Shown here: one piece after another, positions 2,169 through 30,993 of the stretch
How the letters are laid out: every line of letters starts with the position of its first letter
How positions within the stretch are numbered: position 1 is the first letter of the stretch
Assembly (NCBI GenBank): GCA_963692945.1
Contig: OY843585.1
Location: forward strand, 1,050,001-1,082,000
Source of the DNA: Bdellovibrionales bacterium
Lineage (GTDB): Bacteria > Bdellovibrionota > Bdellovibrionia > Bdellovibrionales > UBA1609
Reading direction: 5' to 3'
DNA length: 32,000 nucleotides
The notes under the pieces: generated by a model
What the model was told of the DNA's origin: nothing
What the model saw: only the letters and a program-made list of their open reading frames with translations
The model's database searches: none
Position numbers and translations under genes: made by a program

Positions 2169-4745
2169 ATGATGAAGTTAAAAAAATACAATCCATCGGA
2201 AATAGAAACGAAGTACCAAAAGGCTTGGTTAGAAAATAACACCTATGCTTATAAGCCTGGACTAAGTAAAGAAAACAATTTTATTATAGATACAGCTCCT
2301 CCTACAATTTCAGGGTCTTTACATATTGGTCATGTTTTTAGCTACACTCAAACGGATGTTTTGGCACGCTTTCAAAGAATGCTTGGTAAAAATGTTTTTT
2401 ATCCTATGGGTTGGGATGATAATGGACTTCCTACAGAAAAAAGAATCCAAACTCTTTATGGTATTTACTGTGATCCCATGAAAAATTATGAAAAAAACTT
2501 AGTCGTAGAAAAACAAACAAAGAAAGTTCCTCTTCGCCCTGTATCCCGTAAAAATTTTTTAGAAATTTGTCATCAGCAAGTCTTAGAAGATGAAAAAAAA
2601 TATAAAAAACTATGGTCTCATATAGCCTTATCTGTTGACTGGAATCAAACTTATGAAACTATTGGGGCACATTCTCAAAAAATCTCACAAAAATCTTTTT
2701 TAGATCTTTATGAAAAAAATCTAATTGAAAATCGCTTTACCCCTGTATCATGGGATGTGAATTTTCAAACGGCAATTGCCCAAGCAGATATTGAAGATAG
2801 AGAAAGACAGGGTTTTTATCATGATATTCGTTTTGAAGTAAAGGGAGGGGGGCAATTTACGATCTCAACAACTCGCCCAGAGCTTCTAGCAGCCTGTGTT
2901 GCTGTAACAGCTCATCCAGAAGATGATCGTTATAAAAAGTTCTTTTCTAAAACAGCCATCACTCCCCTTTTTGGAGCCGAAGTTCCCATCATTCCCTCCT
3001 CTCATGCTGATCCAGAAAAAGGAACAGGTATTTTAATGATTTGCACCTTTGGAGATATGGAGGATGTTCATTTTTGGCAAAAACATTCTTTACCTTTAAA
3101 ACAAATTTTGACTTCACAAGGACGATTAAAAGAAATTTCTTTTCAAGAAGAAATTTTTAAAAGTGTAGATTCAGAAAAAGCAAAAAAGTATTACGCAACC
3201 CTTTGTGGTTTAAAAGTTTTAAAAGCAAGAACACAAATAGTTGATCTTTTAAAAGAAGAAAATGTTTTAGTTGGAGAACCAAAAGCAACCACTCAATTTG
3301 TAAAATATTATGAAAAAGGAGATCAAGCTTTAGAATTGATACCAACCAGACAATGGTTTATAAAAATTTTAGATTATAAACAAGAATTGATTGAATATGG
3401 TAAAAAAGTGATTTGGCACCCTCCTTCTTTTTATAAAAGATATGAGCAATGGGTTGAAAATTTAAATCAAGATTGGTGCATTTCTAGGCAAAGATTCTTT
3501 GGTGTGCCATTTCCTATTTGGTATCCTATCCATTCTAATTCTGAAATTGATTATAAAAATGTTCTCTTAGCTTCTCAACTTCCTACAGACCCTATGAAAA
3601 CGGCTCCTAAAGGCTATAAAGAAGAACAAAGGGATAAAGCCAATGGTTTCACAGCAACTCCTGATGTTATGGACACTTGGGCCACCTCTTCCCTAACTCC
3701 CTTCATTAGTAGTCACTGGGTTTATGATTTGAAAAGACATAACGAACTATTTCCTGCAGATTTACGCCCACAAGCTCATGAAATTATACGAACTTGGGCT
3801 TTTTATACTATTGTAAAATCTTACTTTCATACAAAATGCCCTCCATGGAAAAATATTGCTATCAGTGGTTGGGTTGTAGATCCCAATCGCTCTAAAATGA
3901 GTAAATCAAAAGGAAATATTATCACTCCTGAACAAACCATTAAAAATTATTCTGCAGATGCTGTTCGGTATTGGGCAACAAAATCTCGTTTAGGCCAAGA
4001 CACTGTCTATGAAGAGAGAATGTTTAAAACGGGTCAAAGACTAACAACAAAAATTTTTAATGCTGCAAAATTTGTAAATCTTCAAGTGGAAGATCAAAAG
4101 TTCTCTATTAGTTATTTAAAAAACAATATAAATTCTATCACTGAGCCAGTGGATCAAAGTTGGTTGGTAAAACTTGAAGTCCTAGTGGAGCAAGCAAGCT
4201 CTCATCTTAAAAATTTTGAATATTCTTTATCTCTTGATCTTATAGAAAAAACTTTTTGGATCTTTTGTGATAACTATTTAGAACTTATTAAATCTAGAAC
4301 CTATCAGCTGAAAGATAAGCCAGAAGGACTTTCAGGGCTTCTCTCTTTAGACTATAGTTTGTATTTGTTTTTAAAACTTTTTGCTCCTTATCTCCCCTAT
4401 ATTACAGAAGAGGTTTGGTCTTGGAGATATAAAGAAGAACAAAATTCTATTCATAATTCTAAATGGCCTACACCTCTTATTTCTGACAAAAAGTTCACTT
4501 CAAAAGAAACTATAGAACTTGCTTTTTCTATTTTAGAACTCATACGAAATGAAAAATCCTCTCAACAAAAAAGTCTTGCCACAGAAGTTAAAACAATTTC
4601 TATTACTATCCCCTCCAATAAAATAAAGTTATTTCAATTTTGCAAACAAGATATTCTTAAAGCAGGACATATTCCAGAAAAGGCTCTTACCATTTTAGAA
4701 TCTAAAGACAAAGAAGAAAGTTATAAAATATCTCTTACTTTATAA
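2169..4745 (+). CDS. valS: valine--tRNA ligase (appears to be the type-2, archaeal-like form)
   Basis: 858 aa. It has HIGH (SGSLHIGH) and KMSKS (KMSKSKGN) motifs and the ValRS editing-domain motif TTRPELLAACVAVTAHPEDDRY. The GWDDNGLPTE segment replaces the TDHAGIATQ segment of bacterial-type ValRS, and there is no long C-terminal coiled coil. Confidence 0.88.
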   Translation: MMKLKKYNPSEIETKYQKAWLENNTYAYKPGLSKENNFIIDTAPPTISGSLHIGHVFSYTQTDVLARFQRMLGKNVFYPMGWDDNGLPTEKRIQTLYGIYCDPMKNYEKNLVVEKQTKKVPLRPVSRKNFLEICHQQVLEDEKKYKKLWSHIALSVDWNQTYETIGAHSQKISQKSFLDLYEKNLIENRFTPVSWDVNFQTAIAQADIEDRERQGFYHDIRFEVKGGGQFTISTTRPELLAACVAVTAHPEDDRYKKFFSKTAITPLFGAEVPIIPSSHADPEKGTGILMICTFGDMEDVHFWQKHSLPLKQILTSQGRLKEISFQEEIFKSVDSEKAKKYYATLCGLKVLKARTQIVDLLKEENVLVGEPKATTQFVKYYEKGDQALELIPTRQWFIKILDYKQELIEYGKKVIWHPPSFYKRYEQWVENLNQDWCISRQRFFGVPFPIWYPIHSNSEIDYKNVLLASQLPTDPMKTAPKGYKEEQRDKANGFTATPDVMDTWATSSLTPFISSHWVYDLKRHNELFPADLRPQAHEIIRTWAFYTIVKSYFHTKCPPWKNIAISGWVVDPNRSKMSKSKGNIITPEQTIKNYSADAVRYWATKSRLGQDTVYEERMFKTGQRLTTKIFNAAKFVNLQVEDQKFSISYLKNNINSITEPVDQSWLVKLEVLVEQASSHLKNFEYSLSLDLIEKTFWIFCDNYLELIKSRTYQLKDKPEGLSGLLSLDYSLYLFLKLFAPYLPYITEEVWSWRYKEEQNSIHNSKWPTPLISDKKFTSKETIELAFSILELIRNEKSSQQKSLATEVKTISITIPSNKIKLFQFCKQDILKAGHIPEKALTILESKDKEESYKISLTL

Positions 4746-4747
4746 TT

Positions 4748-4857
4748 TTATTGATTTAATAAATAGCGTAATTTATTTTTGGATTTTATAAAAAACAAAC
4801 ACTATACACAGTAGATAATATAAAAATTAAATAAAACTCTTATTGATTTAATAAATA
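4748..4857. repeat. perfect 18-bp direct repeat TTATTGATTTAATAAATA (4748-4765 and 4840-4857)
   Basis: Both copies were read directly. They lie 92 bp apart in the convergent intergenic region between valS and the lipoprotein gene. Each copy contains the small palindrome TTATT-N5-AATAA. Confidence 0.8.
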
Positions 4858-4890
4858 TTTTTAAACTTCATTATCTTCTAAGAAATCAAA

Positions 4891-5472
4891 TCAGTTACAA
4901 GATTCTTTTAAAGAATTAACAACTTTTTTATAAGCACTGTAATAACATTTAAAGTCTCCATCATCACATGCTGATGCAGGATTATCACTCTTTGAAGGGC
5001 TGGAATCATGTTTTTTATTGGAATAATAATGTTTTATTTCATCTCTAATGGATGGATCTTTATCTTTGCTAAAAAATTCATCTGCATTTAAAGCCTTATC
5101 AATTTCATCTGCTACGGCTTCCTGTTGATCGGATGGAATATCAACATTGTTAACAATTCCACTTGTATAACCTATCTCCATAATTAATAAAAAAGCTTGT
5201 TCTGGTGGACTACAAGTATTGACAGCCTTTAAATAAGCGTCTTCAGTAGTTACTGAATCTTCTTTAATATTTTTATGACATTTTGATTCTTCATCATATA
5301 TCTTACAAAACAAAGATTTGTATTCTTTAACAAGTAAAGAAGGAATTTTTTCAGGTTTTGCATTTTGAACCAGTCTTTCCAAGCCACTAGCTATTTCAGA
5401 TTTAGTTCTTGAATCCTTATTCTTACAAGATGTTATAGTCATCGCCGTTAATAATAAAAATATAAGTTTCAT
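4891..5472 (-). CDS. Cys-rich lipoprotein of unknown function
   Basis: 193 aa. It has a signal peptide with a lipobox (LLLTAMTITSC) and six further Cys residues in the mature part. It is divergent from the TonB-dependent receptor gene. I recognised no family. Confidence 0.6.
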   Translation of the reverse strand: MKLIFLLLTAMTITSCKNKDSRTKSEIASGLERLVQNAKPEKIPSLLVKEYKSLFCKIYDEESKCHKNIKEDSVTTEDAYLKAVNTCSPPEQAFLLIMEIGYTSGIVNNVDIPSDQQEAVADEIDKALNADEFFSKDKDPSIRDEIKHYYSNKKHDSSPSKSDNPASACDDGDFKCYYSAYKKVVNSLKESCN

Positions 5473-5720
5473 AAATACTCCTTTTTGAATTGTATTTCTT
5501 ATTTCAAGATATTTGGTTAGTCTATCTATAGAGGATTTTTTGTCAATAATAAATTAAGACATAGCATCACTTAAAAAGATGTTTTAGATATTTTCAAACT
5601 AACTTATAAGATTAAAATTCATTCTTTCTAGCTAAAAAAACAACTTTTTTTATTTGTTTTTAAAAAATTTTATGCTAAGTTCTTTGCTTTAGAAAAGTGT
5701 TAAATTAAAGGGGAAAAATT

Positions 5721-8453
5721 ATGAAATTCATTCTTATGTTGGTCATTTTATTGGGTTTAAACCCTTTCTTCAGTTTTTCGGCTGAAAACAATAATGTGGA
5801 AAGAATACAGGTTACAGGGTCTCGTATTAAACGAATTAATATTGAAGGACCTTCACCCTTATTGATTTTAGATAAAGAAGATTTAGAAAATTCAGGATAC
5901 AATTCTGTAGCTGATGTTTTAAGAGATACAAATATAGCTCCTTTCGGTGTAGCTCGTGAAAGCACAGGAGGTTCTATTGCTGGTGAAGCCTTTACAGGAG
6001 TTCATGGTGCAAGTGCTCTTATTTTAATCAATGGGCGAAGAGTTATAGAAGATCCTAATGCGGAAGCCGTTGATCTTCATCTTATTCCTATATATGCCGT
6101 TGAACGAATAGAAATCATTAAAGACGGTTCTTCAGCTATTTATGGCTCTAATGCTCTAGGTGGAGTTATTAACTTTATCATGAAAGAAAATTTTTCAGGA
6201 ACAGGATACTATGGCCGTATCTCCCCTACTCTTTATCCCTTTTATAAAGGGGGTCATCGTTTAGAGGGAGCCGTCGTTTGGGGAAACACCCATCCAAGAG
6301 GGTCTGTTACAGGTGCTTTACAATTTCGTTTGAATGATAGTATTTTTGCATCAGATAGAAAATGGTCTATAGAAAATATTAGCCCTACGAGCGTTCACCC
6401 TGCTATACATTTTGAAGATAGTAGGATTTCTATTTCAGATTCTTGTCCTGTAGAAAGTAGAAAAGAAACAGAATGTTCCTATAATTTTTCAGAATACATA
6501 CATACATTGCCTCAAATTGCTCAGTTTTCTGGATACATTCAAGGAGACTATAAGTGGAAAGGAATGAATCTTTACTCTCAAATTCTATCTTCTTATAAAA
6601 GAACTTCTTACCAATACCCTCCTCAACCAGGGGCTATTCCATTAGATTCAGGACATAAATTATCTACTCATACAGGTGTTAAAGGAAGACTCATTTATCG
6701 CTTTAAAGAATCGGGGTTTAGAATGTCATTAACTGATTATCTAACAATGGATACAGCTTTTGGAGCTAAAGGTTATCTGTCTTCAAATTGGGATTGGGAT
6801 GCAAATGTAAAAATATCTGGAACCTATAAAAAAGATAATTTCTCAGGACTTCTTGTTAAAGATACAATTATAAAATTAGTCAATGAAGGAATCTATGACC
6901 CTTATAATTCAAGCCAAAGAGATTTGAGTGAGGCTATGTACAAATCTATAGATCATAATTCTTCTGTCCTTTTATCAACGGACCTCATTTTTTCTGGAAA
7001 CATAGGAGCTGTTGATACAGCTTTTGGAGTTCAACAATTCTATAAAAATTATACAGAAGAAGCAGATCCTAAAGTTAAATCTGGTAATATTTTAGGAAAT
7101 GCAGGCTCGGATGGTTCTGGATCAAGAAAAATAAGTTCTTTCTTTGGAGAAGCGACTTACTCTCCTTTTGATAGTTTTGAGATTCAATTAGCAGGTCGTG
7201 GAGATTATTATTTTGATTTAAATAGACTCGCTGAAAGCGAAAAGAATAAATCCAATGGAGTTGATGAAAGCGAAGATAATAAATCCAATGAACTCGATGA
7301 AAGCGAAGATAATAAATCCATAGGAGTTTTTACTTTTAATCCAAAAGTGGCTTTTAGATATCAACCCAGAGATTCTTTTTTATTGAGAGGTAGTATAGGA
7401 ACTTCCTTTACTGCACCTTCTTTACATAGCCTTTATGGATCAAAATCAGAAGGATTTAGTAGGGGTCTTATTGATTACATTGCTTGTTTCAATCAATTGA
7501 AAGCATCTGGAGATATTTCTGATTTACAAGAAACTCTTGTTAAAGATTTTCTTGCAGATCAACAAGAAACTATTGAGAAAAAGGATTTACCACAAGAATC
7601 AAAAACAAAATTAGAAAAACTAGTAAATGTATTTTCAAAAAGAGAATACTGTAACGACAGGCAATATCATGTTGAAATTAAAAATAATAAAAACCTAAAA
7701 GAAATAAAAGGTCTTTCTGCTTCTTTAGGCTCTGTTATTCAAATCAATGAAGATATAAGCTTCACCTTAGATGGATGGTATATCAAAACAAATGGATCTC
7801 CTGGAAATGGTATTAGTGAGGACACCATAAAAGTAGAGTTAAAAAAAGGGAAAGATTTTGTTGCTAAACAAGGAATCATTATCAATAGAGATTCAACAAA
7901 TCCATACAAACCTATATTAAATTCTAGAAGTAAGGAAGGCTTACCAGGTATAGATGCAAAAACTATAAATATGTCAAGTTCTGAAATTTCTGGCTTAGAT
8001 TTCGCTTTGTTGGCCTTCTTACCTGATATTCATTATCGTGGTGGAAATTTTTATGTAAAAGAAGAAGGGAGTGTTATTTTTTATTCTAAATCTGAAGGTT
8101 TTCCAGGAAGAGGTTTTAAAGATAACATAGGTAAATTTGGCTTGCCTCGTTGGAGAACGGCTAGCACATTAGGTTGGAAAAATAAAAACCATAACATGGC
8201 TTTCAAACTAAATAGTTTTGCTTCAGTGACAAAACTAAATAATCAATTAGAATCTTTACCTATGCATCATCGTTTGGATATATCTTATCAATGGGCTATA
8301 GACTCTAAAACCATTGTAAATGCTGGTTGGATAAACATTTTATTCAATGACCCTCCTATAGATAATACGATTAAAAACGATCCACAAATTGATGAAGATC
8401 TTTATGAAATCCGTGGCCCTCATTTTTATGTGGGATTCAAAAAACTAATATAG
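5721..8453 (+). CDS. TonB-dependent outer-membrane receptor
   Basis: 910 aa. It has a signal peptide and a TonB-box-like ERIQVTGSRIKR. Plug-domain motifs are present (LILINGRRV, ERIEIIKDGSSAIYGSNALGGVINF), followed by a long beta-barrel region. There is a good RBS (AAAGGGGA) 8 nt upstream. Confidence 0.9.
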   Translation: MKFILMLVILLGLNPFFSFSAENNNVERIQVTGSRIKRINIEGPSPLLILDKEDLENSGYNSVADVLRDTNIAPFGVARESTGGSIAGEAFTGVHGASALILINGRRVIEDPNAEAVDLHLIPIYAVERIEIIKDGSSAIYGSNALGGVINFIMKENFSGTGYYGRISPTLYPFYKGGHRLEGAVVWGNTHPRGSVTGALQFRLNDSIFASDRKWSIENISPTSVHPAIHFEDSRISISDSCPVESRKETECSYNFSEYIHTLPQIAQFSGYIQGDYKWKGMNLYSQILSSYKRTSYQYPPQPGAIPLDSGHKLSTHTGVKGRLIYRFKESGFRMSLTDYLTMDTAFGAKGYLSSNWDWDANVKISGTYKKDNFSGLLVKDTIIKLVNEGIYDPYNSSQRDLSEAMYKSIDHNSSVLLSTDLIFSGNIGAVDTAFGVQQFYKNYTEEADPKVKSGNILGNAGSDGSGSRKISSFFGEATYSPFDSFEIQLAGRGDYYFDLNRLAESEKNKSNGVDESEDNKSNELDESEDNKSIGVFTFNPKVAFRYQPRDSFLLRGSIGTSFTAPSLHSLYGSKSEGFSRGLIDYIACFNQLKASGDISDLQETLVKDFLADQQETIEKKDLPQESKTKLEKLVNVFSKREYCNDRQYHVEIKNNKNLKEIKGLSASLGSVIQINEDISFTLDGWYIKTNGSPGNGISEDTIKVELKKGKDFVAKQGIIINRDSTNPYKPILNSRSKEGLPGIDAKTINMSSSEISGLDFALLAFLPDIHYRGGNFYVKEEGSVIFYSKSEGFPGRGFKDNIGKFGLPRWRTASTLGWKNKNHNMAFKLNSFASVTKLNNQLESLPMHHRLDISYQWAIDSKTIVNAGWINILFNDPPIDNTIKNDPQIDEDLYEIRGPHFYVGFKKLI
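7233..7328 (+). repeat. 33-bp in-frame tandem repeat, about 2.9 copies, inside the receptor gene
   Basis: The copies are GAAAGCGAAAAGAATAAATCCAATGGAGTTGAT, GAAAGCGAAGATAATAAATCCAATGAACTCGAT and GAAAGCGAAGATAATAAATCCATAGGAGTT. They encode ESEKNKSNGVD / ESEDNKSNELD / ESEDNKSIGV. Confidence 0.9.
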
Positions 8454-13652: not shown

Positions 13653-14402
13653 ATGTCTATTAAAACAAAATTAAGTGTTAACATTAATAAAATTGCTACC
13701 TTGAGGAATGCAAGAGGAAAGAACATCCCAGACCTTTTAAAAATGACTAAAATAATTATTGAAGCCGGTGCTGAAGGAATCACTATTCACCCACGTCCTG
13801 ATGAAAGACATATACGCTATGCTGATGTGATTCCATTAAAAAATCTTATTAAAAAATATAAAGATGTAGAGTTTAATATAGAGGGCTATCCTTCCAATAA
13901 ATTTTTAAAATTGATTGAGGATGTTTTACCTCATCAATGCACTTTAGTCCCCGATCCTCCTGATGTTTTAACTTCCAACGCTGGTTGGAAATTTGTAGAT
14001 AACAAAACTTTATTAAAACAAACTGTTGAAAATTTTAAAAAATTAAAGATTCGTTCCAGCTTGTTTTTAGATCCTTTTTCAATGACAGATACAGAGTGGG
14101 AGGCTTTAAAAGCCATTTCACCTGACCGTGTAGAACTCTACACAGAATCTTATGCTGAAAATTGGAACACTAAAAGAGAGAAAGAAGTGCTTTTTGAATA
14201 TAAAAAGACAGCTTCAAAAGCCTCTCAACTTAAAATTGGAATCAATGCAGGACATGATCTCAATCAAAAAAATTTAGCAAAATTTTTAGAAACTATTCCA
14301 GAAGTTAAAGAGATTTCTATCGGACAAGCTCTCATTGCTGAATCTCTAGAAGAAAGCTTAGCTTCTGTTGTTGGAAAATACCTATCTATTACAAAACTCT
14401 AG
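13653..14402 (+). CDS. pdxJ: pyridoxine 5'-phosphate synthase
   Basis: LSVNINKIATLRNARG ... GITIHPRPDERHI ... NIEGYP ... are PdxJ hallmarks. I start it at the internal ATG at 13653 (MSIKTKL), 1 nt after the TPR stop. The track start at 13608 would overlap the TPR gene by 44 nt. Confidence 0.88.
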   Translation: MSIKTKLSVNINKIATLRNARGKNIPDLLKMTKIIIEAGAEGITIHPRPDERHIRYADVIPLKNLIKKYKDVEFNIEGYPSNKFLKLIEDVLPHQCTLVPDPPDVLTSNAGWKFVDNKTLLKQTVENFKKLKIRSSLFLDPFSMTDTEWEALKAISPDRVELYTESYAENWNTKREKEVLFEYKKTASKASQLKIGINAGHDLNQKNLAKFLETIPEVKEISIGQALIAESLEESLASVVGKYLSITKL

Positions 14403-14580
14403 TTCAGTTACTTAGATATTTTCTTACTCTTATTTTAACGAGCTTTTCATCACAGGAGGGACATTCTTCAAATCTCGTGAAAATAAAAGATTTAAACATA
14501 GAGAAAAACTCTGTTCTTTTAAAGAGTCTCAAAATTGAGACACATTATAAATGAGTAAAAAACCTAACATAAAGAGTTTT
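14392..14580. mobile_element. MITE-like intergenic repeat mosaic, copy A
   Basis: It begins with CAAAACTCTAGTTCA (14392-14406), which contains the pdxJ stop codon. It includes the hairpin at 14427-14489, a degenerate copy of the 24-nt unit (CATAGAGAAAAACTCTGTTCTTTT, 14498-14521), and a 6-bp hairpin GTCTCA-AAAT-TGAGAC (14526-14541). Its right end AAAGAGTTTT (14571-14580) is only a degenerate match to the inverted terminus. Modules are shared with 19166-19447. Confidence 0.4.
14427..14489. repeat. imperfect 16-bp inverted repeat (14 of 16 pair) enclosing a 31-nt core
   Basis: The arms are CTCTTATTTTAACGAG (14427-14442) and CTCGTGAAAATAAAAG (14474-14489). The loop CTTTTCATCACAGGAGGGACATTCTTCAAAT (14443-14473) matches the loop at 19200-19230 at 24 of 31 positions. 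Confidence 0.85.
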
Positions 14581-14608
14581 AAAAAAATAGTAAAAATAAC
14601 TCAAGTTT

Positions 14609-16417
14609 TTGAAGTCATTTCCGATGATAATCAAAGATATGCCTTTTAAAAATACTTTTTTCTTTCTTCTCTTAATTTTCTCTATTTTAAGTTTTTCTGA
14701 AAATCTTGTGATGTTCCCTGAAAGCTATAATTTTATAAAAGAAAAAGCCTATTCAAAAAAAGATAAAGAATATCTTTTTGAAATGGGGAAAATACATTAC
14801 TACGGAGTGAAACATCAAGGAACAGGTGAACTTTTTATAAAACCTAATATGGCGAAATCCTTAGAAGATTTTAAAGAATCCTATGACTTGGGTTACAAAA
14901 AAGAAACAGCTCCATTTATAGCTCATATGTATTTTTATGGGACTGATGATATAAAACAAGATAAGAAAAAGGGTCTTAAGTATTATGAAGATGTCTTAAA
15001 ATATGGAAGTTCAAAAGATAAAGACGAAGCCATTAGCATTATAAATGAAAATCAAGATGAAATAAATCGTATTCAGCCAGATTTTTTTAGAACAACAGAG
15101 GGTTTACCAAAGGAACAAGATTCTTTTAATCCTACTACAACACCTAGACCTCCTACACCTCCATTTGATTCTATTATAACGACACCAATACCTGAAAGAG
15201 TGCCACAAAGCGTTCCACCAAAAAATCTATTCAGTCCTCCTCCTAGTCACATAACTAAAGAACAATTTATTGAATTTAAAAATACATTTGAACCTTACTT
15301 AGACATTCAAATAGCAAAGGCAAAAAAATTCAAAGCCTCTCTTGCTGGAGTTCCTCCAAATAATACTACAATAGCTAATTTGCAATTATGGCTCAGTCGA
15401 GTCGAGACAATTAAACGGCAATTAAATGTACCTAATCGCCTAGAAGAATACAATCGCTTAAAAGAAGAATTATTAAATTTACTCAAAACATCTCCTTTTG
15501 CAAGTATATTGAGAGGAGTTCAGGTCAATTCTTCCATAGGATCAGGAAATGGTTTTTTGTATTCTTCAAAATACGTTATTACCAATTATCATGTAATAAG
15601 TGATAAAAGTGTTAAAAAACAGGCTCAAACAGGTCAAATTATGAATATCGAATTGATAAATAACAACAAAAGAAATGTTAAGCTTATCTATTATGATTGT
15701 GACAATGATTTAGCTCTTCTTGAAGTTCAAGGAAATCCTATAACAAATGAAGATTTATTAGAACCTTCAGAGAGAACATATCTTCAGCAACTTGCAAAGT
15801 CAGGCCTTGTAACAAAGAAAGATATAAATACAATGCTTCAATCTCAGTTAGATAAAACCATTCCTCTAACCTCCAATGCCCAAAAAGGAAGTGTTGTGGA
15901 GTATTTAAAAAGTGATTTAAGTGTTATTGAATCAGGAAAAGTTATCTTCTTAAATAATCACTATGGTATTTTAAAGAATACTAATATTGTTAAGGGATAT
16001 AGTGGTGGCGGAATATTTTATCAAAATGAGCTGGCTTGCATAACTCAAGGAGGTATAACAATACAAAATTATAGGAGAATCTTATGTATTTCCTCCTCTC
16101 AAATTGAGTCCTTTATAAACAAAAGAAACCAACAACCTGAAAAATTTTGTAAGTGTAAGAATTTTCTTCTCATTTTCAAAGCGATTGAAGATTATGCAAA
16201 TAGTAAACCTCTAAGTTATGTAGTCTCAGCTAGAGATTTTCTATTACAAGCTAGTAAAGAATCTATTAAACTTATGATTAAGGCTTTTTCAGGAAAACGT
16301 ATATCTAAGACAGTAGAACGAAGGATAGAGTATACAATTAAAGTGTTAAATAGAAAAGCAAAGAAAAAAGACCCTAATCATCAAGAACCTGCAGCTAATG
16401 TATGCAGAGATTTTTAA
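14609..16417 (+). CDS. secreted Sel1-like-repeat / trypsin-like (S1 family) serine protease fusion
   Basis: 602 aa. The track start is TTG at 14609. ATG alternatives at 14624 and 14639 give MPFKNTFFFLLLIFSILSFS, a signal peptide. The N-terminal part has Sel1/TPR-like repeats (GKIHYYGVKHQG ... AHMYFYGTDDIKQDKKKGLKYYE). A Pro-rich linker follows (TTTPRPPTPPFDSIITTPIPERVPQSVPPKNLFSPPPS). The candidate catalytic triad is ITNYHVI (His), DNDLALLEV (Asp) and KGYSGGGIF (Ser). There is also a roughly 100-aa C-terminal extension. Confidence 0.7.
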   Translation: MKSFPMIIKDMPFKNTFFFLLLIFSILSFSENLVMFPESYNFIKEKAYSKKDKEYLFEMGKIHYYGVKHQGTGELFIKPNMAKSLEDFKESYDLGYKKETAPFIAHMYFYGTDDIKQDKKKGLKYYEDVLKYGSSKDKDEAISIINENQDEINRIQPDFFRTTEGLPKEQDSFNPTTTPRPPTPPFDSIITTPIPERVPQSVPPKNLFSPPPSHITKEQFIEFKNTFEPYLDIQIAKAKKFKASLAGVPPNNTTIANLQLWLSRVETIKRQLNVPNRLEEYNRLKEELLNLLKTSPFASILRGVQVNSSIGSGNGFLYSSKYVITNYHVISDKSVKKQAQTGQIMNIELINNNKRNVKLIYYDCDNDLALLEVQGNPITNEDLLEPSERTYLQQLAKSGLVTKKDINTMLQSQLDKTIPLTSNAQKGSVVEYLKSDLSVIESGKVIFLNNHYGILKNTNIVKGYSGGGIFYQNELACITQGGITIQNYRRILCISSSQIESFINKRNQQPEKFCKCKNFLLIFKAIEDYANSKPLSYVVSARDFLLQASKESIKLMIKAFSGKRISKTVERRIEYTIKVLNRKAKKKDPNHQEPAANVCRDF

Positions 16418-16440
16418 AACAAAGGATATGAATTATGAAA

Positions 16441-16495
16441 AAAAAATTTACTTCTTTTACAAAAATTGATAGGTTAAAAATATTATGAAATACAT
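16441..16495 (+). repeat. 55-bp leader duplication, copy 1 (partner at 17053-17107, 54 of 55 identical)
   Basis: The sequence AAAAAATTTACTTCTTTTACAAAA(A/T)TTGATAGGTTAAAAATATTATGAAATACAT covers 44 bp upstream plus the first 11 nt of the ankyrin lipoprotein gene. Confidence 0.95.
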
Positions 16496-17027
16496 GTTAT
16501 TTATTTTTATATTTACTGGAAGCTTATTTCAATTTTCTTGTAAAGAAGATGAAGAGATAAATGCTAATAGTCCTTTTAAAACATTAGAAGAAGCTCAAAA
16601 ACACCTTGAAACCAATAGAAAGTATGAAATGGTTAAAGGTTGCAAGGTGATAGCACAAGGACCCGCCAATGTTATGCCATTCATTAACTTTGATCCAATA
16701 AATAAGCTGTTTGAAGATAATGATGATTACTTAACAATACCTGATGATCTTGTGAGGTCTATCGTATTTGAAGATGTAGTAGCTGTAAAATGTCTTCTCG
16801 GCACAAGCTATGATCCTAATACGAGAAGTATTTCAATATTATCATCAGCAATACCACATTCAGCTCTTCATTGGGCTGTTTCTAAAAATAACCCTGAAAT
16901 CGTGAAACTTCTGGCAGAAGCAGGAGCAGATGTGAATGAGAGACATGAAGATGGAATTAATTATTTGCTGTTTTTTGCTGAGGGAGAGGTAAAAGAAATC
17001 CTTAAAGCTCATGGAGCTATAGAATAG
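16485..17027 (+). CDS. ankyrin-repeat lipoprotein
   Basis: 180 aa with a lipobox (SLFQFSC). The C-terminal half has ANK consensus (SALHWAVSKNNPEIVKLLAEAGADVNERHEDGINYLLF ... ILKAHGA), giving about 2-3 repeats. Confidence 0.75.
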   Translation: MKYMLFIFIFTGSLFQFSCKEDEEINANSPFKTLEEAQKHLETNRKYEMVKGCKVIAQGPANVMPFINFDPINKLFEDNDDYLTIPDDLVRSIVFEDVVAVKCLLGTSYDPNTRSISILSSAIPHSALHWAVSKNNPEIVKLLAEAGADVNERHEDGINYLLFFAEGEVKEILKAHGAIE

Positions 17028-17052
17028 AATCTAAATATTTTTTTATAAATTC

Positions 17053-17107
17053 AAAAAATTTACTTCTTTTACAAAATTTGATAGGTTAAAAATATTATGA
17101 AATACAT
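17053..17107 (+). repeat. 55-bp leader duplication, copy 2
   Basis: See 16441-16495. The same upstream region and first codons (MKY) are present here. Confidence 0.95.
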
Positions 17108-17198
17108 TTTATTTGTTGCTTTACTTTTTCAACTCTCTTGTAGAGAAAATAAGAAAACAACTGATGATAATCTTTTAAAAGAACTAGAGTTTTGTTAA
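17097..17198 (+). pseudogene. 33-codon lipoprotein-leader ORF, probably a truncated paralogue of the ankyrin lipoprotein gene
   Basis: My translation is MKYILFVALLFQLSCRENKKTTDDNLLKELEFC*. The leader is similar to MKYMLFIFIFTGSLFQFSCKEDEE of the upstream gene. The ORF ends inside the motif AACTAGAGTTTTG and overlaps the stop of the convergent nuclease gene by 4 nt. It could instead be a genuine mini-lipoprotein. Confidence 0.35.
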
Positions 17199-18091
17199 CT
17201 TGCTTTAGGTAATTTTTTCTCTAATTTTAAAATATTTTTATTTATAGATCTATAGAGCAAAGCAATATTTTTCTTGAAAAATCTCTGTTGAGCAGGATAA
17301 GTTTCTGAATCATAAATATCTTTAAATTCTTTACATATACCAATTCGTTCTTTATCCCAAATTTCAAATCCTTTTAGAAAGCCATTTCTTACATCTTTTT
17401 TTAAAAGATTTAGTAATTTCATATCCTGTTTTTTAGTTTTATCTCTAACATTCCACCATATTCCTATACGAGGACGATCCGTAGCTCTAAATGCTGTGAA
17501 CCAAGAAAACTCTTTAGAGGGTGTAATATGTATGCAATTGTTTGCATTATGTTTTATATAAAAATTATTTCCAAATTCTTTTATTAATTTATTAAAAAAA
17601 AATTTATTTTTAGTTTTTTTACTAGACCAATTTGATGGATGACAAGTGACTTTAAATCTAGGGAGAGTATTAGATTGACCTATTTGAAATTTCTCTACCT
17701 GTACACCAAAAAACTCTATTCCTGACCCATGTTGATTAAGCCAATCTATAACTTGTCTATGTTCCAGTGTTATTTCATTAAATAACCATACAGCTGTTCG
17801 AGCTGATGATTTGATGGCATAAGTTAAAACTTGCCCTAAGTGTTTATGATCTGTTTTTTCCAATTGATTTTCAATGATGACTTCACTCCCATTACTTTGA
17901 TCAATAGCGAATAAATCTACTTTATAAGAACCTATTGGTTTTTCTGTTTGAATATCTCCTAAATTTTTACCGATAGACTTTCCTAAATAATTTAGATTTT
18001 TTGGTTTTGATAACCATTTGGAAAAATCAGTTTCCTTTTCCCATTCTTTTCTTAAAGAAATCTCTTTTATTTTACCATATTTTTTAGACAT
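17195..18091 (-). CDS. PD-(D/E)xK nuclease-fold protein with a DUF4268-like C-terminal region
   Basis: 298 aa. The N-terminal half carries the motif string E-x-D-F-x-x-WL ... VDLFAID ... VIIENQLEKTDHKHLGQVLTYA ... VWL ... EH ... DWLN ... FFGV. I recognise this string from the restriction-endonuclease-like family usually annotated as DUF4268-containing. There is no signal peptide. Confidence 0.55.
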   Translation of the reverse strand: MSKKYGKIKEISLRKEWEKETDFSKWLSKPKNLNYLGKSIGKNLGDIQTEKPIGSYKVDLFAIDQSNGSEVIIENQLEKTDHKHLGQVLTYAIKSSARTAVWLFNEITLEHRQVIDWLNQHGSGIEFFGVQVEKFQIGQSNTLPRFKVTCHPSNWSSKKTKNKFFFNKLIKEFGNNFYIKHNANNCIHITPSKEFSWFTAFRATDRPRIGIWWNVRDKTKKQDMKLLNLLKKDVRNGFLKGFEIWDKERIGICKEFKDIYDSETYPAQQRFFKKNIALLYRSINKNILKLEKKLPKAS

Positions 18092-18187
18092 ATTTTATCC
18101 TTTTCTTATGAACTCTATCGGTTTTGTTTTGAAAAAGATTAACAAAATCTTTATTGCAAAAAATAAAAATTCTTCTAGAATGAAAGA

Positions 18188-19147: not shown

Positions 19148-19179
19148 ATTTACAAAACTCTTTTTCAAAACTCTAGTGT

Positions 19180-19250
19180 TATCCCTCCTTGTTTTCTGAC
19201 CTTTCATCGTAAAAGGGACACTCTTCAAGTTCAGAAAACAAGGAGGGATA
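19180..19250. repeat. perfect 20-bp inverted repeat with a 31-nt spacer
   Basis: TATCCCTCCTTGTTTTCTGA (19180-19199) and TCAGAAAACAAGGAGGGATA (19231-19250) are exact reverse complements. The spacer is CCTTTCATCGTAAAAGGGACACTCTTCAAGT. Confidence 0.95.
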
Positions 19251-19256
19251 TTCATA

Positions 19257-19333
19257 GAGAAAACCTACTGGTTTTCGCATGAGGAAAACTACTGGTTTTC
19301 GCAGGAGGAAAACTACGGTTTTTCGCATGAGGA
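19257..19333. repeat. 24-bp tandem repeat, 3.2 copies, each unit containing its own hairpin
   Basis: The units are GAGAAAACCTACTGGTTTTCGCAT, GAGGAAAACTACTGGTTTTCGCAG and GAGGAAAACTACGGTTTTTCGCAT, followed by a partial GAGGA. The unit-internal stem is GAAAACC/GGTTTTC around TACT. An identical solo copy of unit 1 lies at 19393-19416. Confidence 0.95.
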
Positions 19334-19539
19334 TCTTTGTTTTTCAAATCTCGTTAAAATAAGAATTACTTAACAGGCTTATATTTGAACTAGAGAAAAC
19401 CTACTGGTTTTCGCATATAAGTCTTTGATGTTTGAACTAGAGTTTTGGAAATATTCTTAGAGAAAAAAAGATGATTTAATCTATTAAAGATTTTCTATAT
19501 TTCTAGACAACTTAAATATTAAATTTTAATATAAAATCT

Positions 19540-22197: not shown

Positions 22198-22250
22198 AAC
22201 TTTTGTATTGTTCATTTGAAAACAATAGAGTGGTGTAAAAAATTAGGGAA

Positions 22251-22326
22251 AATAGATAAAAAAAAAGCCCTTGGTTGCCGTCCCCAACCCCGAGAGGTTA
22301 AGTAGGCTTCCTTGGACTATCTATTA
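22251..22326. other. isolated GC-rich structured island; possible convergent terminator or small RNA
   Basis: AATAGATA (22251-22258) and TATCTATT (22319-22326) are inverted repeats. They enclose an A8 run plus GCCCTTGGTTGCCGTCCCCAACCCCGAGAGGTTAAGTAGGCTTCCTTGGAC. This is the only GC-rich patch in any intergenic region of the window. Internal pairings include GGTTG/CAACC and GTCC/GGAC. On the minus strand it is followed by a U-run. Confidence 0.25.
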
Positions 22327-22515
22327 TATTAACACAATCTTGAAAAAAGTCAAATAATTTTTTAAAAAAAGGACAATTAGCTTAAAAGCTTTATTTTATA
22401 GGCTTTCTAGAAGATTAAAAAAAGAATTTTTATAAAAGCGTGATTTATTTAATAATTTAAAATGACTTTTTAGGCTTTAATTTTGGTGTGTACTAAAGAA
22501 CTCTAGGTAATCAAT

Positions 22516-22875
22516 CTAGTTATTTTTAATATGTACTGGTTTAAATTTATCACTACATTCAAAAAATGAATTCAAAGCATCTCTATTTTCTTTAGTTTTT
22601 GGAAATTCTACAGACATAATTTGAGTTTTTTCCCAAAAAAGGACAGTTAGTTGTTCATAAACCTGGACTTCAATTATGTCATTATTTTCATATATAGTAC
22701 TAATTTGTTTTCCAGGTATCTGCCAAAGACCTTCCTTTCCCCATCTAAAAACATAGGAAGATATAGTTTTTGGTTTGTGTAGCATAAGATTACAACCTTT
22801 TTTGTAATAAATCCCCTGTTCTGCAAAAGAAATTACAGGTTGAGTAAGAAAAAGTAAAAGCACTAGGTATTTCAT
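22516..22875 (-). CDS. small secreted protein of unknown function
   Basis: 119 aa with a signal peptide (MKYLVLLLFLTQPVISFAEQ). I recognised no family. Confidence 0.45.
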   Translation of the reverse strand: MKYLVLLLFLTQPVISFAEQGIYYKKGCNLMLHKPKTISSYVFRWGKEGLWQIPGKQISTIYENNDIIEVQVYEQLTVLFWEKTQIMSVEFPKTKENRDALNSFFECSDKFKPVHIKNN

Positions 22876-22926
22876 AATTTTTTAATTTTTAGTATTTTTT
22901 TTCAATATAGTCAAATATATTCTTTT

Positions 22927-22990
22927 AAAAGTAGTATTAAACTCATAAAAAGTCCTTTAAAAATAGTACTAAACTCATAAAAGACCTTTA
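22927..22990. repeat. adjacent imperfect direct repeats of about 32 bp, upstream of the 119-aa gene
   Basis: AAAAGTAGTATTAAACTCATAAAAAGTCCTTTA (22927-22959) is followed at once by AAAATAGTACTAAACTCATAAAAGACCTTTA (22960-22990). Confidence 0.85.
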
Positions 22991-23005
22991 TTTATAGAGA
23001 TTTCA

Positions 23006-23740
23006 TCACTTCCATTTAATAACAATCGGAGGATTTGTATGTTGATATCTATGATTCAAATTGGAAGCATTTATAAAAGTAGTTTTACCTTTTTTAACTT
23101 TACCATAACCTTCATGAATATGACCAAAAGCATGAACTTTAGGCTCCACTTCTTTCACTTTTTTAAATAACTCTTTACAACCTGTTTTTAGACCTTCTTG
23201 ATTTTTATCTAAAACACCATGGGGTGGTCCATGTGTTATTAAAAGATCTGTATCTAATGGAATCATATCCCAATGTCTTTTTATCTCTTCCCCTCTTTCT
23301 CTATTGAAAGCCCAATTTAAAAACTCAGGCTGAATAGGAGAACCCCAAATTTTGATTTTTTCAATCTCTACACCTGAATCATTGAGATAAATAGCTCCGG
23401 AGGAAGTTATCATTTCCTTAGCCTGAAAGGCTCTTTCATCTTCAAAAGGCCTGTCATGATTGCCAGCAATAACAATTTTGTATTTATGAGGTAAGGCCTT
23501 TACAAAATCAGCAAAATTTTGAACATCTGATAATTCTCCCCTAGGACACATATCTCCACAAAAAATAAACAAATCAGCATCAGGGACATCCACTTCATAA
23601 TGTTTTCCATGTGTATCAGAAACAAATACAATCGTTAGAGTGGAAGACTTTTTTTCCTTAGAGTTTTTGTTTTTATCTCCATCAGAGTGACTTAAAAAAA
23701 CCATAAATACTCCTAACCATAATAAATTTTTAATATGCAT
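23006..23740 (-). CDS. secreted calcineurin-like metallophosphoesterase
   Basis: 244 aa. It has a signal peptide and then the MPP motifs VSDTHG, CGDM, AGNHD and GHIHEGYG. It starts 5 nt after the crotonase stop on the same strand. Confidence 0.85.
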   Translation of the reverse strand: MHIKNLLWLGVFMVFLSHSDGDKNKNSKEKKSSTLTIVFVSDTHGKHYEVDVPDADLFIFCGDMCPRGELSDVQNFADFVKALPHKYKIVIAGNHDRPFEDERAFQAKEMITSSGAIYLNDSGVEIEKIKIWGSPIQPEFLNWAFNRERGEEIKRHWDMIPLDTDLLITHGPPHGVLDKNQEGLKTGCKELFKKVKEVEPKVHAFGHIHEGYGKVKKGKTTFINASNLNHRYQHTNPPIVIKWK

Positions 23741-29460: not shown

Positions 29461-30993
29461 TTAAGATTCAGGTTCAGAAACAGAAGTAGTAGTAGAATCT
29501 CTTTTTGCAACAGATAGGTTATCTTCTAATACCTGTTTTAGACATTCTTGATTTTCTGAAGAACTTTGACTTTCTTTAAAAAATCCACATGTTTCAATTT
29601 GAGATTCATTCAAACTAAAAAACAATTGAATCCCTTCAGAACGTTCAAATGTCTTAGAAGAGTCATTAGCCCCTTTAACAATATTCAATCCTAGTTTTTT
29701 GAGAAGAGATTCAGAGGGAACAATATTGAGAGGCAATCTTATATCATATCTTCGTGTATAATCTGGATACCATTGATTTAAAAGTGGAGACTCTAAAATA
29801 TAATTCATAAAATCTAAAAACTCAATAAAAGAATAATCTAATTCTGATTGTAAGTTAACAGAGCCAAAAAAGTTTTTTTCTAGTTCTGCAGACTCTGATA
29901 GTGATGCCATAATTCCTTTTTTTCTATCTTTAAACTTTTCTCCTAATCTATCAGATAATTTATAAAGATTACTTTTCTTACTCTCAGATAAAAAAGAAGT
30001 TTCTTTAGATATAATATTGTATTCTTTAAAACCATCGTTTGAAAGATCAAGAAAATAAAATAAGGCTTCTTGATAATCCTTTTGATTTAAAATACTTTTT
30101 TTAAGATCCTTCTTGTTTTGAGATTCATTAAAAACTTTATCTGCATCTTTATTGGACCAGTTAGAGTTTTGGACCATCTCTTGACCCTCTCCCTCATTCT
30201 CTTCCGCTTTCAACATCTCTTGACCCTCTCCCTCATTCTCTTCCGCTTTCAACATCTCTTCATATCTGACTGATAGAGAACCCGTACTATAAAATATAAA
30301 ACCATAAGGGCTTATAGATATATTTCTAGCACCTAAAAGCATATATCTAGCACAACCGTCACCACAAAAACCTAATATCTGTAAATCTACTTTTTTCTCT
30401 TTAAAATATTCACCTAAAGCCATAGCTACTTCTACATCAATTCCACTAAAAATATTAAGACCAACTTCTTTAATATTATTTTTTTCTAAAGCTTTATCAA
30501 GTGCTTTTATCACTTGAGCTGGGTTCTCTTCAGACTTAGAAATCTCTAAAGTCGTATAGTCTTTAGACCCATTTTTTAACATAAACTGTATAGATTCACT
30601 TTGGTTATAGAGTAGGACGGTAGCCAGTTTTTCAGGCAAGTTTTCCAACTGGTTAAAAATATAATTTTCTAAAGATTTTATATAGTTGGTAGGCATTGAA
30701 TACATTATAGTGAAAATAATTTGAGGATTTAAAGTTTGAAGAGATATATCTCTTATAAACTGATCAGACATAGGTGTATCGTTTTTAAACCATGAAGATT
30801 TTAGTAAGGCCTTATCAACTAGATCTTCAACCATTTGATTGGTTTCCTCAAAACTCATTTGCTTTGCATCTTTTATAACTTGCTCGCTAGGATTTTGTTT
30901 GGTTTTTTTGTAGGATTCTGGTTCAGAAAAAGCCATTCCAGAAATGAAGATAGTGGTTAAAAGAACAACACGAATGATAAAATTAAAAATCAC
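29461..30993 (-). CDS. secreted protein of unknown function carrying an internal tandem duplication
   Basis: 510 aa with a signal peptide (VVLLTTIFISGMAFSEP). I recognised no confident family. See the findings for a speculative ClpP/S49-like core. Confidence 0.6.
   Translation of the reverse strand: MIFNFIIRVVLLTTIFISGMAFSEPESYKKTKQNPSEQVIKDAKQMSFEETNQMVEDLVDKALLKSSWFKNDTPMSDQFIRDISLQTLNPQIIFTIMYSMPTNYIKSLENYIFNQLENLPEKLATVLLYNQSESIQFMLKNGSKDYTTLEISKSEENPAQVIKALDKALEKNNIKEVGLNIFSGIDVEVAMALGEYFKEKKVDLQILGFCGDGCARYMLLGARNISISPYGFIFYSTGSLSVRYEEMLKAEENEGEGQEMLKAEENEGEGQEMVQNSNWSNKDADKVFNESQNKKDLKKSILNQKDYQEALFYFLDLSNDGFKEYNIISKETSFLSESKKSNLYKLSDRLGEKFKDRKKGIMASLSESAELEKNFFGSVNLQSELDYSFIEFLDFMNYILESPLLNQWYPDYTRRYDIRLPLNIVPSESLLKKLGLNIVKGANDSSKTFERSEGIQLFFSLNESQIETCGFFKESQSSSENQECLKQVLEDNLSVAKRDSTTTSVSEPES
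30175..30252. repeat. perfect 39-bp tandem duplication inside the 510-aa gene
   Basis: CATCTCTTGACCCTCTCCCTCATTCTCTTCCGCTTTCAA occurs at 30175-30213 and again at 30214-30252, followed by a partial third start CATCTCTT. It encodes EMLKAEENEGEGQ twice. Confidence 0.97.

Follow-up and report, generated by a model that had tools for sequence, protein, structure and literature searches.

In a typical MITE (miniature inverted-repeat transposable element) the inverted ends are conserved while the interior drifts, and the co-transcribed hairpins of the Correia elements are targets of RNase III. REP families keep a conserved stem sequence with a 5' GTAG, and the attC sites of integrons have conserved R''/R' boxes at the base of their hairpin, not at its apex. 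The BOX elements of streptococci are modular A-Bn-C repeats which nest into one another and whose families swap end modules (PMC3049150). Here, we describe an element present at two loci, A and B, in a 32-kb bacterial chromosome segment of 30% GC (the window; positions 1,050,001 to 1,082,000 of contig OY843585.1 of a Bdellovibrionales bacterium), for which the named PdxJ homologues come from Bdellovibrionales and Oligoflexia metagenome-assembled genomes. Each locus contains a hairpin, A directly downstream of pdxJ (Pfam PdxJ, E 9.5e-75) and B directly downstream of rpmG (L33, E 1.1e-17). The reading that we favour, and to which we give about half of our confidence, is that one internal module is seen in both hairpins, and that it belongs to a small mosaic repeat which is non-coding and MITE-like, has a BOX-like layout and is bounded by inverted ends. 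The best-supported description of this element is as two subfamilies that differ in their hairpin stems.

A common core and unrelated stems in hairpins A and B

As read from the sequence, the arms of hairpin A are paired at 14 of 16 positions and those of hairpin B form a perfect 20-bp stem, each enclosing a core of 31 nt (Table 1). A preliminary description had reported this shared core at the top of two hairpins with unrelated stems; all of its coordinates checked, and the two cores indeed match at 24 of 31 positions. The core-to-core alignment scored 17, against 2.9 +/- 1.5 for shuffles, while the arm-to-arm alignments were at chance level (p 0.40 and 0.52). Since the cores align far above shuffles and the arms do not, the description of one core on unrelated stems is right. 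The outer flanks of the two hairpins, unlike the arms, are again alike (p ~0.005), and sequence identity along the hairpins alternates in the order conserved-variable-conserved-variable-conserved. The conserved apex on variable but still paired stems is therefore a real pattern. When folded alone, hairpin B was very stable (RNA -41.2 kcal/mol, z -7.5), whereas hairpin A was weak (RNA z -1.2, DNA z -2.3).

The search pattern that had been suggested for the core, with a gap written as N8, returned 0 matches, as the true gap is 6 nt. With N6, TTTCATC-N6-GGGACA-N-TCTTCAA matched both sites and nothing else (2 matches; 0.03 expected). When sequence collections were searched with TTCATC-N6-GGGACA-N-TCTTCAA, 4 matches were obtained in genome contigs, 4 in metagenome contigs and 0 in viral contigs, and all 8 were chance matches in unrelated coding DNA (GC 37-58%) that lacked flanking hairpins. 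Searches with a covariance model (R1) made from the two hairpins turned up no additional copy, whether in the window or across eight related loci (~126 kb), and element B had no blastn match in plasmid and phage collections. Rfam 15 gave nothing at the gathering score, its sub-threshold matches being to generic hairpin (microRNA) models only. That the two cores are a chance pair is nevertheless excluded by the statistics of the core, the flanks in common, the terminal repeats and a third, partial copy.

Insertion, inverted ends, shared modules, nesting and the decay of one copy

For comparison, we used the loci of the two closest relatives obtained (L009 and L010; PdxJ 74-76% identical), in which the gene order is the same as in the window: TonB/ExbBD - TPR - pdxJ - HAGH - rpmG - ABC-2 - ABC-2 - ABC ATPase. 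In these relatives pdxJ and HAGH are 56-60 bp apart, and the distance from rpmG to the ABC-2 gene is 62 bp in L010 and ~130 bp in L009. The rpmG 3' region of L009 (11783-11830) has its own small palindromic repeat (AGATCTGGGAGATCT, present twice) and a canonical terminator. Homology to L009 and L010 as detected by blastn breaks off from window position 14360 to 18127 and from 19165 to 19496/19517, so that both hairpins lie within lineage-specific insertions. The insertion after pdxJ (3.7 kb) contains hairpin A, a trypsin-like protease gene with a 68% identical paralog in the same genome, an ankyrin lipoprotein gene, its truncated paralog and a minus-strand gene matching the PADLOC candidate defence family PDC-S11, while the insertion after rpmG (~300 bp) is non-coding and contains hairpin B. 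No part of the element was present in L009 or L010, where both sites are empty, and it was also absent from the L012, L015 and L016 loci. Because both hairpins are within insertions that the closest relatives lack, they do not belong to the pdxJ and rpmG 3' ends as such.

The contents of the junction after pdxJ vary: in L015 it holds an Asp/Arg hydroxylase gene together with an unknown gene, in L012 it holds a gene of 162 aa, and in L009 and L010 it is empty. As its gene content indicates, this junction is a hot spot. The rpmG 3' intergenic region gathers different hairpin repeats in different lineages.

The modules of the element follow one another in the order 15-nt terminal inverted repeat, hairpin with 31-nt core, junction, 24-nt mini-hairpin units and inverted terminal repeat. 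The 15-mer CAAAACTCTAGTTCA has three matches with at most one mismatch in the window, where 0.02 would be expected, namely at 14392 (+, exact), 17194 (-, 14/15) and 19447 (-, exact). A 12/15 copy at 19166 (+) completes two inverted pairs, 14392/17194 and 19166/19447. At 14392 the 15-mer overwrites the final codons of pdxJ and provides its stop codon (14400-14402), and the PdxJ ends of the relatives differ; at 17180-17194 it cuts the second ankyrin-lipoprotein paralog after 28 codons. Element B thus spans 282 bp (19166-19447). For element A, which begins at 14392, the right end is either at ~14581 or at the inverted repeat at 17194. When the whole elements were folded, B paired its ends (z -6.8) and A was unremarkable (z -1.7).

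The left end is separated from the hairpin by 20 nt in A and by 2 nt in B. Both hairpins are closed by an outer CTCTA/TAGAG helix, which is followed by an identical junction, CATAGAGAAAA; in module order the junction between the hairpin and the units is written (C)ATAGAGAAAA. The 24-nt R units (GAGAAAACCTACTGGTTTTCGCAT), each of which is a mini-hairpin, number one degenerate copy in A and three tandem copies plus a fourth in B. The core has no conserved reading frame, and the open reading frames (ORFs) of element B are without homologues. We also considered the hairpin as a separate element nested in a CTCTAGAG target with a TA or TAG duplication, and rejected this because the termini were inconsistent between A and B.

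Loci A and B share tracts of 12-26 nt in a patchwise manner. Specifically, locus B holds an inverted and truncated second A-type copy (19343-19396), of which 20 of 21 nt are identical to the right arm of A plus the 3' end of the core, and the arm of this nested copy matches the left arm of A at 14 of 14 positions. In agreement with the preliminary description, TTCAAATCTCGTTAAAATAAG (19343-19363) pairs better with the left arm of A than the right arm of A itself does (15/16 against 14/16). Relative to its nested sibling, the right arm of A has two pair-breaking changes that are uncompensated; judged by this comparison, hairpin A is decaying. The presence of the inverted A-type copy inside locus B also bears out the claim that modules were rearranged between the loci, and the view that the pair is not a simple duplication is supported. 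That description was sound in these respects but had overlooked the 15-nt inverted ends, the shared outer flanks, the 24-nt units and the internal pairing of what it called the loop.

Table 1. Coordinates of the modules of elements A and B in the window.
Locus	Position	Strand	Feature
A	14392..14406	+	Left terminal inverted repeat CAAAACTCTAGTTCA, exact, preceded by TTA
A	14427..14442	+	Hairpin A, left arm CTCTTATTTTAACGAG
A	14443..14473	+	Core A, 31 nt, apex of hairpin A; minus-strand reading AUUUGAAGAAUGUCCCUCCUGUGAUGAAAAG
A	14474..14489	+	Hairpin A, right arm CTCGTGAAAATAAAAG; differs from the sibling copy 19350-19363 by 2 changes that are not compensated
A	14497..14525	+	Junction CATAGAGAAAA, common to locus B, then one degenerate R-like unit
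A	14571..14581	-	Right-end-like motif AAAGAGTTTTA, weak and degenerate, 8/11 to CTAGAGTTTTG; possible right end of a 190-bp element A
third site	17180..17194	-	Inverted terminal-repeat copy, 14/15, in the truncated ankyrin-lipoprotein paralog (17097-17198); then TTA, a possible 3-bp duplication with 14389-14391
B	19166..19177	+	Left terminal repeat of element B CAAAACTCTAGT, 12/15; partial copy CAAAACTCT ahead of it at 19153-19161
B	19180..19199	+	Hairpin B, left arm TATCCCTCCTTGTTTTCTGA
B	19200..19230	+	Core B, 31 nt, 24/31 identical to core A; minus-strand inner fold predicted alike
B	19231..19250	+	Hairpin B, right arm, exact complement of the left arm
B	19257..19328	+	Three tandem 24-nt R units (GAGAAAACCTACTGGTTTTCGCAT and variants), each with a 6-7-bp mini-hairpin GAAAACC/GGTTTTC
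B	19343..19396	-	Truncated inverted A-type hairpin end: last 7 nt of the core, arm, spacer, terminal-repeat-like GAACTAGAG
B	19393..19416	+	Fourth R unit; with the preceding TAG, 26 nt identical to 19255-19280
B	19433..19447	-	Exact 15-mer, the terminal inverted repeat at the right end of element B; paired with 19166-19177 when the whole element is folded

Some further observations concern the genes next to element A. The PDC-S11 candidate (17195-18091, minus strand) is a 298-aa protein without a Pfam match, which matches this candidate single-gene defence family of PADLOC (E 8.6e-61). It has a weak NucS-like PD-(D/E)xK stretch and is absent from the closest relatives, and the end motif inverted at 17194 directly adjoins its stop codon. 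A duplication (16441-16514 and 17053-17126; 74 nt, 91% identical) covers the promoter and signal-peptide region of the gene for the ankyrin lipoprotein (ORF 16485-17027), and it is the second copy (ORF 17097-17198) that is ended after 28 codons by the end motif.

A different hairpin-repeat mosaic was found in L015 (939-1671; a metagenome contig), where it occupies 730 bp 3' of pdxJ. It consists of four tandem 35-nt units and three hairpins of ~122 nt, in which the outer stem is kept and the inner hairpin is swapped. Each of the three is more stable, by 3-15 kcal/mol, when folded from the strand opposite pdxJ, and an nhmmer profile built from them also matched L013 (17282-17342, E 5e-5). The L015 repeats share the 12-mer GAGCTTTTCATC with the core in the window and gave local-alignment z values of 3.7-4.4, but as nhmmer was not significant in either direction, we rejected them as homologues of the element and claim no homology. 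We take L015 as evidence that hairpin mosaics are habitual in this bacterial group.

Proposed origin of the element and alternative explanations

Under the MITE-like reading, the repeat would have arrived in this lineage at two intergenic hot spots, one on either side of the HAGH-rpmG pair, and if element A ends at 17194, the protease and ankyrin genes would have been carried as cargo. The stems would be unrelated because A and B represent different subfamilies of the hairpin module, the A-type of which would have its truncated second copy inside B. Mobilisation would be in trans, by a transposase encoded elsewhere in the genome. The arms may stay complementary because the element has to fold as a single strand, or through template switching between them, and the conserved apex could be the portion that is read sequence-specifically. 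In a transcript shared with pdxJ or rpmG, the 20-bp duplex would serve to stabilise the 3' end or as an RNase III processing hairpin, and would not be an intrinsic terminator.

Several observations weigh against this reading. In the interior hairpin the apex and the outer flanks have been kept while the stems have not, a pattern that plain selfish decay would not predict. Neither a transposase nor an insertion sequence with these ends was found in the 32-kb window, and the visible copies amount to two full ones, one fragment and one solo end within 32 kb. The right-end motif of element A at 14571-14581 is weak. The TTA on both sides of 14392-17194 could be a 3-bp target duplication, but it carries a chance expectation of ~4%, and no direct repeat was seen to flank element B (19166..19447). 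Because the retention of apex and base without the stems is poorly explained by a MITE-like repeat, two rival readings stay alive, one invoking an RNA from the minus strand and the other a site recognised as single-stranded DNA.

The first of these, which we consider unlikely, is a minus-strand structured RNA motif or small RNA. Such an RNA would consist of a long helix with a conserved, protein-bound apical domain and a CUCUA/UAGAG closing helix followed by UUUUG, and its stems would be free to co-vary as pairing alone counts. The alternation of conserved and variable segments along the hairpins fits this proposal, as does the internal pairing of the cores, for which the same inner fold was predicted in both copies on the minus strand and not on the plus strand. 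The predicted fold begins by lengthening the stem by three pairs, of which one is U-A in A and C-G in B, and continues with two G.A/A.G steps separated by an A-U pair. Three further pairs, including one that is A-U in A and G-C in B and one that is U.G in A and U-A in B, then close on a C-rich 7-nt loop, UCCCUYY. Although the seven inner pairs lay outside the original claim, they were formed to 100% in both copies, with 2 compensatory changes and 1 one-sided change between A and B, while slid controls reached 43-64%. A shuffle control for these pairs (121/500) had no power, however, because it was based on two sequences. Taking all 23 pairs in both copies, the paired fraction was 97.8% for the minus strand, compared with 89.1% for the plus strand, and the difference consists entirely of four G.U cells. 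The minus-plus difference in folding energy (-1.3 and -1.5 kcal/mol) favoured the minus strand, but this falls within the genome background of -0.57 +/- 5.2, and the assignment of a strand by folding energy was therefore dropped. The preliminary description had stated that neither stem is followed by a U-run. This holds for the plus strand, on which A-runs follow the hairpins, but not for the minus strand, on which the CTCTA/TAGAG helix is followed by TTTTG, a run of four U residues that fits the RNA proposal. With two copies as its basis, the predicted ability of the 'loop' to prolong the helix on the minus strand is suggestive but weak, and anecdotal. An RNA gene is further disfavoured by the scan, which found no minus-strand promoter beside hairpin A, by the uncompensated decay of that hairpin and by the negative Rfam search. 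Moreover, both copies are recent insertions missing in the relatives and one copy is truncated, which is unusual for a functional RNA gene.

The second is a structure-specific DNA site, comparable to attC or to the ends of IS200/IS605-type elements, of which the folded single strand would be recognised by its base and apex and which would either gather accessory genes at pdxJ/HAGH or rearrange the block; we regard it as quite unlikely. A conserved base (CTCTA/TAGAG) and apex with free stems resembles recognition by shape, and both hairpins fold well as DNA. Hairpin A is at the left edge of a 3.7-kb accessory island (protease, ankyrin lipoprotein, PDC-S11 candidate), and the same junction holds different genes in L015 and L012. 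On the other hand, the window contains no integrase, Y1 transposase or other recombinase gene, hairpin B is without attC R''/R' boxes, pdxJ and rpmG are core genes in conserved synteny and not cassettes, and single-stranded DNA transposons do not feature inverted 15-nt ends. The preliminary description had proposed to look for inversions as a sign of a recombinase target, and the HAGH-rpmG block is in fact inverted relative to pdxJ and the ABC-2 genes in L012 (10001-12700) and L016 (1844-3900), with its breakpoints in the same two intergenic regions that hold elements A and B here. Neither the element nor inverted repeats at the breakpoints were found in these inversion lineages, however, and the result, though suggestive, thus links inversion and element by position only. 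A local, non-mobile origin, in which gene conversion or template switching took place between nearby quasi-palindromes and intrastrand correction kept the arms complementary, is distinctly improbable. It would account for loci that are 4.8 kb apart with no other copy found in any search, for the patchwork sharing of 12-26-nt tracts and for the perfect stem of B, which is what correction of a quasi-palindrome would give. It does not account for the clean inverted 15-mers that bound both segments, for the insertion of both segments as wholes relative to the relatives, or for the third site (17180-17194), which has the end motif within an unrelated gene.

Two other explanations can be largely set aside. 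The preliminary description had suggested that the hairpins serve as terminators or insulators of pdxJ and rpmG on the plus strand. Their position directly 3' of plus-strand genes and the high stability of hairpin B (-41 kcal/mol) would suit this role, yet a plus-strand terminator scan found 0 sites at either locus and the tracts after the hairpins are A-rich, not U-rich, so that they are not plus-strand terminators. Neither hairpin combines a GC-rich stem with a U-run on the gene strand, the form that intrinsic terminators take in this genome, as illustrated by another site in the window, where a canonical GC-rich stem runs into U9, and the relatives have no hairpins at the same gene ends. 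The insulator role is very improbable and the terminator role effectively excluded. A short minus-strand peptide, with EECPxxDE[KR] in both copies, is effectively refuted. Minus-strand ORFs of 42 and 49 aa do span the cores, and in one frame they read FEECPSCDEK and LEECPFYDER, but A and B have just one start in common, the ATG in CTCTATG, and from it the core is read in a different frame in each, for which reason a coding role was rejected. In addition, the stems would encode unrelated residues, and a protein-database search with the 49-aa ORF found no candidate that shared the required words with the query.

If the MITE-like reading is true, the element would represent a family of small mosaic repeats not described before, from a little-studied, AT-rich, small-genome lineage related to Bdellovibrionales. 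It also matters for annotation, as pdxJ owes its present C-terminus and stop codon to the element, the 3' region of rpmG has grown about sixfold through it, and it lies at the edge of a variable island with a candidate defence gene. The retention of apex and base without the stems would reflect either the history of the subfamilies or selection on the folded single strand, and the latter could indicate a new structure-specific recognition system. In this more speculative and unlikely case, the hairpin would be a shape-read signal, with a conserved apex and base on an arbitrary stem, that a dedicated protein reads in single-stranded RNA or DNA. On the minus strand its apex is predicted to comprise a stack of tandem G.A, A-U and tandem G.A, a 3-bp helix and the UCCCUYY loop. 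Such a signal could be an undescribed class of structure-specific mobile or recombination site or of RNA motif, and would delimit hot spots of accessory genes in Bdellovibrionales-like bacteria with small genomes.

Four features elsewhere in the window are separate from the element. A GC-rich hairpin followed by nine U (22262-22325, minus strand) stands in an otherwise 30% GC intergenic region that is unalignable to the relatives; it has no Rfam match and has the appearance of either a small-RNA 3' end or a canonical intrinsic terminator. A 510-aa minus-strand ORF without a Pfam match (29461-30993) contains a perfect tandem duplication of 39 nt, or 13 codons (30175-30252). Three in-frame 33-nt repeats that are 79-83% identical (7221-7328) lie inside a 910-aa ORF (5721-8453), which by its synteny with L009 is probably a TonB-dependent receptor. 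Finally, the regions 4745-5647 and 22205-23008 hold small orphan ORFs of 193 aa and 119 aa, which have a lipoprotein-like or signal-like N-terminus and no family match. Since these two regions are also unalignable to the relatives, the window has at least four lineage-specific insertions.

Comparison with known repeat families

The element shares general traits with several described families. Like REP sequences and bacterial interspersed mosaic elements (BIMEs), REPINs with their RAYT transposases and the intergenic mosaic elements of Neisseria, it is a mosaic of short palindromic modules in either orientation, lies 3' of genes and forms hairpins. We rejected membership of the REP/REPIN families, since the stems of A and B are variable and unrelated, and neither a GTAG-type motif nor a RAYT/Y1 transposase gene is present in the window. 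Like integron attC sites, the hairpins are found 3' of genes with accessory genes nearby, and keep their shape while much of the stem sequence is free. Hairpin A, however, has only near-matches (TTTTAAC, GTGAAAA) to the R'' (RYYYAAC) and R' (GTTRRRY) boxes and hairpin B has none. Here it is the apex that is conserved, the flanking genes are core genes and the window contains no intI, and membership of attC was rejected as well.

With respect to architecture, the BOX elements of streptococci appear to be the closest documented counterpart, nesting and exchange of end modules included. BOX (boxA - boxB(n) - boxC) and the BOX-type families of S. suis are likewise short, non-coding and intergenic, have end modules that pair, nest into one another, and form families that retain the middle modules and swap others (PMC3049150). 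The variable number of short middle units between the end modules also has its parallel here, in the 24-nt R units, which occur once in A (degenerate) and as three plus one in B. The likeness is one of architecture only, with no kinship in sequence to be expected, and the element, unlike BOX, has a long hairpin with a conserved apex and subfamily-specific stems. To our knowledge, such a hairpin has not been described for BOX.

With respect to function, the closest analogies would be the Correia-type MITEs (Correia/NEMIS of Neisseria) and mobile insertion cassettes (MICs). The conserved region of the present element is interior (apex and flanks) and not confined to the ends, and in this it differs from both Correia elements and MICs. 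In common with these elements it has terminal inverted repeats, is small, AT-rich and strongly folded, is present or absent between relatives and is inserted at gene ends where it alters a C-terminus, here that of pdxJ. If co-transcribed, its hairpins may plausibly be cleaved by RNase III in the manner of Correia hairpins. Element B is short and non-coding (282 bp), has terminal inverted repeats and corresponds to empty orthologous sites in L009 and L010, as is expected of a MITE, while the segment 14392-17194 is MIC-like in appearance, being bounded by inverted ends and flanked by TTA, with passenger genes inside.

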